Source: Escherichia phage IME08. From it: a stretch of DNA of 64,000 nucleotides. The DNA is taken from the sequence record NC_014260.1. One strand, 5' to 3'. Position numbers and translations under genes: made by a program. The notes under the pieces are model-generated. The model made no database searches. It was not told the DNA's origin and saw only the letters and a list, made by a program, of their open reading frames with translations. Shown one piece after another: positions 3,762 to 64,000 of this stretch. The stretch's first letter is position 1. Each line of letters opens with the position of its first letter.

Positions 3762-4895
3762 TTAATAAACGTAATCGTAAATAATTCCAGCATCCAAAGC
3801 GGTTCTGTGAATAATTCTACCATTACGAGATTCCTGTACATCAACCTCCGGATAGTCAGTAATCATTTTTTGAAGAGTATAACGATGGAGATAGAAATCA
3901 CTATCAGGGTCATCGGTTTTCCAGTCTTTGCCTTCAAGAGTCATTTTCTGGATTTCGTCCATAACCCACCAACCACACCAGATATAAGCTGAATTGCGAA
4001 CTGGTAGCGGATGAACGTAAGGTAGTTCGCCCTCTGGAACTGGTGCGACTTTAGCCGTGACTGTTACATTACCAGTTTTGGTAACAGTCGTAGGGTTATA
4101 ATCGGCGGCCGAAACAACAGCAGAAACTTCAATAACCTGTGAACCTTCAGCGCTTGTGTCAATTACTAATGTATCTGTAGCACCCACAACAGGTGAACCG
4201 TCTTTCTTCCAAGAATAAGCAAAAGTGGCACCACTAGGCGCACCTGCTACGGTAGCTTTAAAAGAAGCCGGAGTTCCTTCAGGTACATTAATAGAGGCTG
4301 GCGTTAAATTAACAGAAACCCCAGACATTGTTTTCTTAACAAAAGAAACCGTTACGCCTTTAGCAGCAGTTGCTGAACCGTATTCCGGAGAGGTAACAGT
4401 AACTTCACAATTCAAGGTATAATTTGCTTCGGCTGCTTCAGTTAGTGTAATAGTTTTAGAGGTTTGGCCTGAAATTACGGTGGTATTTCGTTTCCAAACA
4501 TAATTAATTGTTGCACCAGCAGGAGCACCGGTTACATTAGCCGTAACAACTTGGGATTGGCCGACTTCTTTAGAAACGGAAGTAGGGTCCAAAGCCAAAG
4601 AGATATCCATAGTTTTATTAGATACAGTAACTTCAAAGGTGTCTTCGGCTGTCTCAAGAGGACCCGCATCGCCAGGGTCAGAAGTTACTACTACTTTTAT
4701 AACTTTCTTACCCGCAGGAGCAGCACCCGTATATCTCAAAACATTAGTGGTTTCTGGGTTAGCAGCTCCATCAACGGTCCATACATATGCAATGGTTCCA
4801 CCTGTTACAACTGCGTCGGTTGCGGTAGCAGTGTAGTTAGCGCTTTCGCCTATTTTCATAGACGCTGCGCCGGCTATACTTACAGTAAAGGCCAT
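3762..4895 (-). CDS. hoc: highly immunogenic outer capsid protein Hoc
   Basis: 377 aa; matches recalled T4 Hoc along most of its length (Ig-like repeats, KTGNVTVTAKVAP…ELPYVHPLP, C-terminal capsid-binding domain). Confidence 0.9.
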   Translation of the reverse strand: MAFTVSIAGAASMKIGESANYTATATDAVVTGGTIAYVWTVDGAANPETTNVLRYTGAAPAGKKVIKVVVTSDPGDAGPLETAEDTFEVTVSNKTMDISLALDPTSVSKEVGQSQVVTANVTGAPAGATINYVWKRNTTVISGQTSKTITLTEAAEANYTLNCEVTVTSPEYGSATAAKGVTVSFVKKTMSGVSVNLTPASINVPEGTPASFKATVAGAPSGATFAYSWKKDGSPVVGATDTLVIDTSAEGSQVIEVSAVVSAADYNPTTVTKTGNVTVTAKVAPVPEGELPYVHPLPVRNSAYIWCGWWVMDEIQKMTLEGKDWKTDDPDSDFYLHRYTLQKMITDYPEVDVQESRNGRIIHRTALDAGIIYDYVY

Positions 4896-61482: not shown

Positions 61483-61511
61483 ATAATATCATGATTAATG
61501 GAGATGTATAC
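61483..61511 (-). promoter_or_regulatory. T4-type early promoter variant (GTATAC-N17-TATTAT)
   Basis: Plus-strand ATAATA 61483-61488 and GTATAC 61506-61511. Confidence 0.45.
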
Positions 61512-61601
61512 TGATTTATGCCAATTTCCACAACAATAAACTAAAACATACACAAATCACTGGGATACAGGCCATCCAAATAAGGCACCACGTTTTGCTA
61601 C

Positions 61602-61868
61602 TCAAAACACCACCTCTTTTATCTCAATCAATCCCCTGTACAATGCAGTGCGGAGGTCATAAAGAATATCTATGCCGTCAACATTATCTAGTTTACCGTC
61701 GATAAGTTTTTGTAAATCTTCCTTTGATGCGATTAAGGGACGGAGAAATTTACATTCAGAAAGAGATAACTCTGTAGTAATATCATCACCTTCACCTGAC
61801 GCGTCATACATAGCGGCAACAACCGTACCTGTAACTTTATGTTTAGCGTAATATAATTTGATATCCAT
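61602..61868 (-). CDS. hypothetical protein
   Basis: Start at internal ATG (MDIKLYYAKH…). Confidence 0.4.
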   Translation of the reverse strand: MDIKLYYAKHKVTGTVVAAMYDASGEGDDITTELSLSECKFLRPLIASKEDLQKLIDGKLDNVDGIDILYDLRTALYRGLIEIKEVVF

Positions 61869-61896
61869 TTTGTTCTCCTCATTAGTTGATAGGAAG

Positions 61897-61926
61897 ATAG
61901 TAACACCATCCATGGCGTATGTAAAC
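61897..61926 (-). promoter_or_regulatory. T4-type early promoter (GTTTAC-N18-TACTAT)
   Basis: Plus-strand ATAGTA 61897-61902 and GTAAAC 61921-61926. Confidence 0.5.
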
Positions 61927-61938
61927 ACTTATTTTAAA

Positions 61939-62520
61939 TTATAAGGCGAGATACCAGCCGTTGTAATTGCTCTTACGGACCAGCTTTGTGATGGCTTCTC
62001 TGTCACCAGAGAACTTAGGAGTGAACAGGACATCGCCTGCCTCATTTACTGAAGTGTCGAATATAATTATACAGTCTGCGACTTTATGATTCAAGAGCGG
62101 TCCCAGGTTAATCCCTGTTCCATAAGGGAAGTCACCCGAGTATCCTGTAGTACAGGAAATCCACTTAGAATCTGATTGGTGGGTCTTGACCTCTACACGT
62201 AGTCCACAGTACATAGGATGAGCTAAAACATCCCATGCATAGGTATAAGGGTCGTCATGGTCTTCCAGACCGCTGTTAACGTATCCTTTCAACCAATCAG
62301 CAACCATGTACTCGGCATACGTTGCAATGACACACCGAGTCAATACTTCTTTCTTATCTTGGGACGGGTCTTGGCTTAAGGAATACAGTACGGTATCCTT
62401 AATCTTGACCTTCATTTCACCTGTTAAATCAGATGTCTTCAGGGTAAATGTCGGCATCGCTGCCAATCGGAGTAGTCCCGGGTTCGTCTTCACCATAAAT
62501 GCCTCGAATATGAAGTTCAC
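61939..62520 (-). CDS. hypothetical protein at the denB position (possible endonuclease IV; start uncertain)
   Basis: 193-aa ORF whose 5' end overlaps the upstream ORF by 92 nt; identity not verifiable from memory. Confidence 0.35.
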   Translation of the reverse strand: MNFIFEAFMVKTNPGLLRLAAMPTFTLKTSDLTGEMKVKIKDTVLYSLSQDPSQDKKEVLTRCVIATYAEYMVADWLKGYVNSGLEDHDDPYTYAWDVLAHPMYCGLRVEVKTHQSDSKWISCTTGYSGDFPYGTGINLGPLLNHKVADCIIIFDTSVNEAGDVLFTPKFSGDREAITKLVRKSNYNGWYLAL

Positions 62521-62737
62521 CGTAATAAATTCGGTCGTCAGGTTCTAAAGTATCAGAATCTGCTAAAGGAAATTCACCTTCGACCACCTCATCACATTCC
62601 AGAAAAGCGTAATGAACATCACCAGGGTGTTTAACGAGCTTAGCACAATAAACAGTACCCGCTTTATGGAACCCACGCAAATTGGAAATCTTGATATCGC
62701 GTTCACCGACATTCAGGTAATTAATCATTTTACTCAC
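62429..62737 (-). CDS. hypothetical acidic protein
   Basis: 102-aa ORF. Confidence 0.35.
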   Translation of the reverse strand: MSKMINYLNVGERDIKISNLRGFHKAGTVYCAKLVKHPGDVHYAFLECDEVVEGEFPLADSDTLEPDDRIYYGELHIRGIYGEDEPGTTPIGSDADIYPEDI

Positions 62738-62927
62738 CGAAATAAGAAATACGAACCTCTAAACAATGAGCATAAGCACCCATCGCATCCAGTTGAGCAA
62801 TCAGTAACCCTTGTTGACGGATATCAAGAGTTTCAAAAACACCGCCTTTAATAAAGGTTTCTAGTGCATTAATTTTAAGAACCAGCTGGTCGTATTCTTC
62901 AACTACACGTGCTTGGTAACCTAACAT
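62730..62927 (-). CDS. hypothetical small protein
   Basis: 65-aa ORF directly downstream of rIIB. Confidence 0.35.
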   Translation of the reverse strand: MLGYQARVVEEYDQLVLKINALETFIKGGVFETLDIRQQGLLIAQLDAMGAYAHCLEVRISYFGE

Positions 62928-62939
62928 AATTTCCTCTTA

Positions 62940-62955
62940 GGAGGCCGAAGCCTCC
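62940..62955. terminator. hairpin GGAGGC-CGAA-GCCTCC after rIIB
   Basis: Same hairpin sequence as at 24431-24446. Confidence 0.55.
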
Positions 62956-62965
62956 GTTTATTGAT

Positions 62966-64000
62966 TTAGTATTTGTATTCGTTTGCGAACTGTTCAGTGA
63001 CGTCTTCTAGAACTTCATAATAACATACACGCATTTTAGCATCACCGTAATCGACTGGAATACTAACAACATCACGTGGGTTAACTTTACACGAAACTAC
63101 TTTACAGCTTGAGTTACCAAAATGACCAATATAGCTACGAGAGCAAACGTGCAGACCACTTGAACAAGTTACTTCATCATCGTCATTTACACGAGAACGT
63201 GGCATTTTAACAGGTTTGCCTGGCGAGTTATCAAACGTACCGGTACGACAGTCGGTGTAATCAGAGTTAACAACTTTCCATGTGATAAAATGGCCATCTT
63301 CAGTGATTTTGATATCGTTTGCAACCAGGAAGTCAAACAAACGCTGTACAGCTTTTTCGCTTGGGTTTTCTAACAGGTTTTCAAGGAAAGGCAGGTAGAA
63401 TTCGAAGTCTTCACCGTTTTCCATTGAAGTGATAATACGGTCAATCAACCCTGAACGCAATTCGATACCTTGATAAACCAGACGTCCACCTTCAATACGA
63501 ACGTTGCCTTTAACAAATGCCTTAACAGCTTCTTTAATGGAAATCAGTTTAATCGCATCATCGAAACGAGATTCTTTAAGAGCCTGTACGATGGCATCAA
63601 AATGTTTGTTCTTATTAGTGGTGTTCCATACTGTTCGGCCTTCGGTGATGGACACGAATTTAGAACTAGCATTCCAAATAATTTCAGGGCGAGAGCCGCC
63701 AATAGTAACTTCAACGGGAACTACACGAGGCTCGTTAGGAACTGTTACTTTGATATTTCCGGTAATAACCACTTCTGCTGGGGCATTAAGAGGTACAGTA
63801 GGCGCTTTTTTAAGCGATTCGGCTAAAGAATTAGCCACTTGAGAACGTTTAGCTTCTTCAGCATTTTTCAGGACTTTACGAATGGTATCAACCGAAACAC
63901 TATACCAGTCAGCTAGTTCTTGCTGGGTATAATTACCGGATTTATAGAGGGAAACTACTTTCTCTTGTTCAGATTTAGCCAGACACTTAATATTGTACAT
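62966..64000 (-). CDS. rIIB: rIIB protein (start codon at window edge)
   Basis: 344 aa from ATG at 64000; MYNIKCL…GNYTQQELADW…VSVDTIRKVLKNAEEAKR and C-terminal FANEYK match recalled T4 rIIB. Confidence 0.9.
   Translation of the reverse strand: MYNIKCLAKSEQEKVVSLYKSGNYTQQELADWYSVSVDTIRKVLKNAEEAKRSQVANSLAESLKKAPTVPLNAPAEVVITGNIKVTVPNEPRVVPVEVTIGGSRPEIIWNASSKFVSITEGRTVWNTTNKNKHFDAIVQALKESRFDDAIKLISIKEAVKAFVKGNVRIEGGRLVYQGIELRSGLIDRIITSMENGEDFEFYLPFLENLLENPSEKAVQRLFDFLVANDIKITEDGHFITWKVVNSDYTDCRTGTFDNSPGKPVKMPRSRVNDDDEVTCSSGLHVCSRSYIGHFGNSSCKVVSCKVNPRDVVSIPVDYGDAKMRVCYYEVLEDVTEQFANEYKY

Follow-up and report, generated by a model that had tools for sequence, protein, structure and literature searches.

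The denB region of a Dhakavirus T-even phage: three predicted early genes and a 68-nt overlap of denB with a DUF7418 gene

The region between the ndd cluster and rIIB in the window (the whole stretch of 64,000 nt from Escherichia phage IME08, NC_014260.1) very probably carries three early genes, independent of one another, that belong to a T-even phage of the Dhakavirus type. All three lie on the minus strand, each is predicted to have its own Shine–Dalgarno (SD) sequence and ATG, and denB is predicted to begin at ATG 62496 and to overlap the preceding gene by 68 nt. The layout is ordinary: all three genes belong to catalogued families, and the 68-nt overlap is already annotated in some GenBank records. 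The genes are as follows:

61939..62496, minus strand: denB, endonuclease IV, 185 aa; ATG 62496; stop TAA 61941-61939
62429..62728, minus strand: DUF7418 gene, 99 aa; ATG 62728; stop TGA 62431-62429; SD GGTGAG 62738-62733
62730..62927, minus strand: denB.1, 65 aa; ATG 62927; stop TAA 62732-62730; SD AAGAGGA 62938-62932

Gene content and family assignment

The ORF listing of the region contains three minus-strand ORFs: 61939..62520 (193 aa, GTG), 62429..62737 (102 aa, GTG) and 62730..62927 (65 aa, ATG). A previous sequence-only reading had reported these ORFs with overlaps of 92 nt and 8 nt, and both values were reproduced (62429-62520 and 62730-62737). These lengths result from the longest-ORF rule, by which the first ATG, GTG or TTG after a stop is taken as the start; in the 102-aa ORF the family match begins at an internal ATG at residue 4, and in the 193-aa ORF at one at residue 9. 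Upstream in the direction of transcription, the group is adjoined by rIIB (62966..64000, minus strand; phrog_609, E = 6e-105), and small ORFs of the ndd-cluster type lie downstream of the 193-aa ORF. Both gene order and homology bear out the earlier placing of 61939-62927 at the denB position downstream of rIIB. The T4 locus, rIIB-denB.1-denB-ndd, has the same gene order and strand; T4 differs in lacking a complete gene between the two denB-named genes.

A megablast search of 61500-64000 against the phage collection returned 286 records. The best matches were the Dhakavirus T-even phages KIT01, UGJNEcP3, AnYang, vB_EcoM_005, QL01, CLB_P2 and Bp7, with 92–97% identity. The same three genes are found in AnYang (NC_055782), CLB_P2 (OL770107), Bp7 (NC_019500) and KIT01 (AP019521), at 92–97% nucleotide identity over the interval searched.

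The 193-aa ORF matches phrog_1360, “DenB-like DNA endonuclease IV”, from residue 9 onwards (E = 2.8e-89, profile positions 1-188 of 203); no Pfam model for DenB was matched, and PHROG alone identifies the protein. From M9, which corresponds to ATG 62496, it aligns with T4 DenB (NP_049887, 185 aa) end to end and without gaps over 185 residues, with 72% identity, the same length and the same MxKTNPGL start. The earlier reading had been unable to match any of the ORFs to DenB. The residues G79, S184, G188 and W189 (193-aa numbering) are invariant in the alignment and correspond to G71, S176, G180 and W181 in DenB numbering. Ser176, Gly71, Gly180 and Trp181 are described as shown or implicated as functional in the T4/T2 enzyme (PMC2175332, PMC12916289). 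By homology to the characterised T4 enzyme, the DenB of the window would be a Mg2+-dependent, dC-specific single-strand DNA endonuclease attacking cytosine-containing DNA.

The 102-aa ORF matches Pfam family PF24193 (DUF7418) with 138.8 bits against a cut-off of 27, its residues 4-101 covering profile positions 1-100 of 101, and also phrog_2237. With these families (RB69ORF272c-like proteins) it shares the full-length match and the genomic place, the difference being one of sequence divergence only. A CDS of 300 nt is annotated at this position in all four relatives inspected (AnYang, Bp7, KIT01 and CLB_P2). GTG 62737 was rejected as the start, the Pfam match beginning at ATG 62728, which lies 1 nt past the denB.1 stop and 4 nt past GGTGAG. 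The 8-nt overlap with denB.1 is an artefact, since it arises from accepting the upstream GTG. The low ratio of nonsynonymous to synonymous differences in the core of the gene (pN/pS, listed below) identifies it, on comparative grounds, as a real protein-coding gene.

The 65-aa product of denB.1 matches Pfam family PF21825 (crAss001_48-related) with 70.3 bits against a cut-off of 24.8. It shows 55% identity with T4 DenB.1 over 65 aa and 98% with its Bp7 counterpart. Scans of the three proteins with NCBIfam and PADLOC gave no match. Judged by curated-family matches far above threshold, none of the three ORFs is a chance ORF, and the gene structure, previously called unresolved, can be read as separate known homologues with conventional starts for each ORF, the very outcome that the sequence-only reading had given as its refutation.

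Position of the denB start

The start of denB was compared across the T4 locus and 26 related loci, which represent at least seven genera. In the window, the SD and the ATG of denB both fall within the coding sequence of the DUF7418 gene, the ATG spanning the Y and G codons of the latter:

62502..62505, minus strand: denB SD GAGG, 5 nt upstream of ATG 62496, inside the R-G codons of the DUF7418 motif HIRGIYG

An SD and ATG homologous to those of T4 were present at every locus compared, including those of Tequatro-, Mosig-, Jiaoda-, Karam-, Marfa- and Dhakavirus. The SD homologous to GAGG of the window reads cAGAGGnatntATG or cGAGGcatttATG in Mosigvirus, Jiaodavirus, Marfavirus and Dhakavirus loci. 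In lineages with the motif GELHIRG[IL]YG, the codons CAT ATC AGA GGn ATT TAT GGn supply both AGAGG and the ATG of denB; where the DUF7418 residues differ, another purine-rich SD occupies the same place (GGTGGTGattATG in JS10, AAGGAAAgtctaaATG in ACG-C40 and T4, AAGGTGAatATG in KMB20). T4 Endo IV is described as a protein of 185 aa, and active recombinant enzyme was obtained from ATG CAG AAA ACG AAT CCT GG (MQKTNPG...) (PMC1635256). The numbering of Tyr38 in that work agrees with the 185-aa start, the activity having been shown for the recombinant form (PMC1635256). This comparative evidence supports a DenB start at ATG 62496, giving the 185-aa T4-type form.

Translation of the whole 193-aa ORF from GTG 62520, with a 92-nt overlap, is scarcely credible. 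This GTG is the first start codon past the upstream stop; however, it is not preceded by an SD (ttattacgGTG), it reads GCG in KIT01, and the 8 additional residues have no counterpart in the PHROG profile or in T4 DenB. None of the public records of AnYang, Bp7, KIT01 and CLB_P2 uses it. The earlier suggestion of an internal start for the 193-aa ORF was therefore correct as regards the start itself (M9, ATG 62496), but this start does not remove the overlap, of which 68 nt are real and conserved.

A start further downstream, at ATG 62415 (M36, 158 aa), would remove the overlap entirely, the upstream in-frame codons then being merely open. AGGTGA stands immediately 5′ of this ATG, and three GenBank/RefSeq records (Bp7, JS10 and ACG-C40) use it. 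Nevertheless, we regard M36 as the main start as very unlikely. The SD is just 1–2 nt from the ATG, and the ATG itself is missing in Jiaodavirus (GEAKV), Karamvirus (SDRV) and two further loci, L023 (EDRV) and L025 (EDKV). The 27 residues upstream of M36 are about 67% identical to T4 DenB (18/27), although T4 has no full overlapping upstream gene. Within the overlap, substitutions have been filtered according to the DenB frame, and T4 Endo IV has been described and used as a 185-aa protein (PMC1635256). A minor, shorter DenB isoform may still be made from M36, given the AGGTGA just upstream.

The annotation of DenB in public records of close relatives varies accordingly in length: 158 aa in Bp7 (L002 943-1419), JS10 (L008 1232-1708) and ACG-C40 (L009 1244-1720), 172 aa in KIT01 (L003 1224-1742) and 185 aa in AnYang (L001 940-1497) and CLB_P2. 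These three lengths arise because gene callers avoid the overlap. The AnYang and CLB_P2 records give exactly the layout proposed here, with a 558-nt denB overlapping a 300-nt upstream CDS by 68 nt, and an overlap of 68 nt (or 65 nt) is likewise annotated in Shf125875 and KEN25_2. The AnYang record omits denB.1, and the CLB_P2 record labels denB.1 “endonuclease”. The main value of the present analysis is therefore one of annotation: it adds a comparative case for the 185-aa DenB start and a description of the overprinted tail and the embedded ribosome-binding site (RBS). It has some practical relevance, since DenB triggers retron Eco2 and serves as a marker for transduction and for the capacity to degrade host DNA.

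The overlap of denB with the DUF7418 gene

The sequence shared by the two genes comprises the terminal codons of each, the denB frame being +1 relative to the DUF7418 frame:

62429..62496, minus strand: dual-coding overlap, 68 nt; last 22 codons and stop of the DUF7418 gene, first 22 codons of denB

Recurrence across lineages indicates that the 68-nt overlap is genuine and conserved among many related phages. Each of the five T-even genera examined for this feature has an overlap of 44–68 nt; in two other lineages it is reduced to 17 nt or absent. It amounts to 68 nt in Dhaka-, Tequatro-, Jiaoda- and Karamvirus and in Citrobacter phage Moon; in the Karamvirus KMB20 record, a later annotated ATG gives 44 nt. 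Elsewhere the overlap is 65 nt (Mosigvirus), 53 nt (Marfavirus), 80 nt (locus L026) or 17 nt (locus L020), and in Gaprivervirus DK-13 the two genes are separated by a gap of 4 nt.

Selection in the two frames was assessed with Nei-Gojobori counts summed over 10 close pairs, with the following pN/pS values:

DUF7418 core: 0.09
Rest of DenB: 0.14
Overlap, DenB frame: 0.30
Overlap, DUF7418 frame: 1.31

The counts for the overlap are small, the pairs are phylogenetically non-independent and dN/dS in dual-coding sequence is confounded, so these values are supportive rather than a formal test. They are consistent with the purging of substitutions that change the denB reading of the overlap, but not of those that change its DUF7418 reading. 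When three Jiaodavirus loci are compared, the differences within denB codons 1–22 are silent for DenB and change the DUF7418 tail. Translated in the DenB frame, the overlap shows 54% amino-acid identity across 7 lineages; translated in the DUF7418 frame, it shows 39%. In the best AlphaFold2 (AF2) model of the DUF7418 protein, tail residues 84-99 have pLDDT values below 50, and some homologues of 84–87 aa have no C-terminal tail. The C-terminal tail of the DUF7418 protein would thus be a disordered extension under weak constraint, “overprinted” on the 5′ end of denB.

The sequence-only reading also offered a frameshifted or split gene as an explanation. On this view, the 102-aa and 193-aa ORFs would belong to a single gene, either read through by a programmed +1 frameshift or interrupted by a frameshift mutation or sequencing error. 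The DenB frame, which is +1 to that of DUF7418, is open for 16 codons upstream of M9, and a record of Shigella phage sb3 has a single 272-aa CDS in which the two are fused through a 1-nt deletion. Against this stands, in the first place, the clean full-length homology of each ORF to a separate family, each with an SD and ATG. T4 DenB is complete and active at 185 aa without an upstream domain, and the DenB of the window aligns with it from end to end. The same two-ORF layout, with a separate stop and start for each, recurs in dozens of independently sequenced genomes; the DUF7418 gene lies apart from denB in Serratia phage 92A1, where two other ORFs stand between them, and does not overlap it in DK-13. 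The DUF7418 stop (TGA, TAG or TAA) and its context are unconserved between lineages, inspection by eye revealed no prfB-like or other shift-prone site in the overlap, and the sb3 fusion is one record with an indel in an A-run. A split or frameshifted gene is consequently extremely improbable, since DenB is complete compared with T4 and has a conserved start of its own, the DUF7418 gene is independent and the stop context is variable.

As a specific shift site, AUC UGA U at the DUF7418 stop was considered and rejected, having no conserved context and a varying stop codon; in our reasoning, the P-site tRNA would also re-pair poorly there. The sb3 CDS itself (PQ666541; L013 901-1719) has lost one base before the denB ATG, CTAAATG becoming TTAATG. 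The lost base probably reflects an error in sequencing or a mutation private to sb3; if real, the CDS would represent a natural DUF7418-DenB fusion.

With two separate genes as the preferred reading, denB initiation at ATG 62496 would be directed by the GAGG embedded in the DUF7418 coding sequence. From what is generally known of translational coupling, an overlap of 68 nt would exceed the length that ordinary termination-reinitiation allows. The most economical mechanism would be that ribosomes start denB independently at the internal SD, and not by frameshifting or termination-reinitiation. RNA folding around the denB RBS revealed no notable structure (z = −0.9). Known overprinted or long-overlap gene pairs of phages are alike in having two frames, a downstream SD and ATG within conserved upstream codons, and one frame that is the most constrained; in contrast to them, the overlap here is limited to 22 codons at the end of one gene and 22 at the start of the other, and the RBS structure is unremarkable. 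The locus can serve as a small example of overprinting, with an RBS fixed in a conserved peptide motif and a disordered tail laid over the 5′ end of another gene.

The DUF7418 family, its T4 remnant and neighbouring features

The DUF7418 family is small and, as far as sequence searches reach, confined to T-even-type phages. Homologues were detected by tblastn in 710 phage records, and an exhaustive HMM search of 1.84 billion representatives yielded 11 clusters, 10 of which consist of proteins of 84–133 aa. The eleventh, a 25-residue match within a 5745-aa protein, was set aside as probably spurious. None of the 11 clusters contained a distant relative in a non-T-even context that could hint at function. 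The position upstream of denB is kept in Mosig-, Jiaoda-, Karam-, Marfa-, Gapriver- and Tequatrovirus.

The best AF2 model of the DUF7418 protein shows a small all-beta domain (residues 8-83) with pLDDT values of 80–89 over most of the core; its mean pLDDT is 73 and the other four models reach 36–49, which makes the fold only moderately trustworthy. The model had no fold match in the PDB, and a Foldseek search against BFVD found other DUF7418 proteins only. Sequence searches of the PDB with DenB and DUF7418 gave nothing significant, and the literature searched contained nothing on DUF7418, with one incidental mention among the gene and family names of this locus.

The difference between T4 and the other phages can be traced in an alignment of T4 with its close relative ACG-C40, in which the DUF7418 gene is intact. 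The 82-nt “intergenic” gap between denB.1 and denB of T4 opens with the DUF7418 start ATGATTTATATGAATATCGGTGATTCCGACAT and then skips, by a deletion of about 220 nt, to AAAGGAAAGTTTAAATG, which contains the denB SD and start. The deletion is in-frame and leaves an unannotated ORF of 37 codons, MIYMNIGDSDIKESLNAENESWVTETISDSDIYPIEQ*, which still extends over 68 nt of denB:

NC_000866 about 167593-167706 (L004 4094-4207), minus strand in L004: T4 DUF7418 remnant ORF, 37 codons, within the 82-nt gap plus first 68 nt of denB

Since T4 keeps this deleted remnant alone, the DUF7418 gene is dispensable in T4. The T4 denB RBS is, in turn, a relic of DUF7418 coding sequence, because the in-frame deletion joins the DUF7418 start to AAAGGAAAGTTTAAATG.

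The DUF7418 protein might be a partner or regulator of DenB, for example by restraining a toxic nuclease or by hiding it from defences that sense DenB, such as retron Eco2. In that case the conserved overlap, in which the SD and ATG of denB are locked into the invariant HIRGIYG, would keep the genes co-inherited and make denB initiation dependent on upstream ribosome traffic. DenB has been described as the phage trigger of retron Eco2 (PMC12916289). The pair is syntenic in at least seven T-even genera, and the family was found nowhere else (11 clusters, 1.84 billion proteins); this synteny is the sole support for a modulation of DenB/Eco2, which could in principle occur. The idea is nevertheless very unlikely, being weakened by the fact that T4 does without the gene, by the general conservation of synteny in T-even phages, by the lack of structure at the denB RBS and by the absence of constraint on the overlapped tail in its own frame.

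Several further differences between the window and its relatives were observed. In JS10, also a Dhakavirus, the DUF7418 core (L008 901-1218) is only about 40% identical to 62429-62728 of the window, while the sequences around it, namely denB.1, the shared tail (DADIYPEDI) and denB, hardly differ. This pattern points to allelic replacement or mosaic recombination limited to the DUF7418 core. KIT01 carries an additional insertion of about 285 bp with a 75-aa ORF (L003 926-1153) between denB and the phrog_2390 gene; the window has no such insertion, and UGJNEcP3 probably has the same one, judging by the same extra match length. In the window, the ORF downstream of denB (61602-61928, minus strand; 108 aa, GTG) matches phrog_2390 only from residue 21. 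The real start of this gene is likely ATG 61868 (MDIKLYYAKHK..., 88 aa), preceded by GAGGAG, and the GTG would be another artefact of the longest-ORF rule.

The gap between rIIB and denB.1 contains a hairpin with a calculated energy of −12.4 kcal/mol (z = −1.4), which might act in RNA stability or processing or as a terminator:

62940..62955, minus strand: GGAGGC-UUCG-GCCUCC hairpin, between the rIIB stop (62968-62966) and the denB.1 SD

A promoter and terminator scan of 61500-63200 found fewer promoter-like sites than in shuffles, and the sole terminator-like match was the plus-strand reading of this hairpin. In T4 and ACG-C40, a similar GGGC-UUCG-GCCC hairpin is located after denB.1 (about 4224-4239 in the T4 locus L004).
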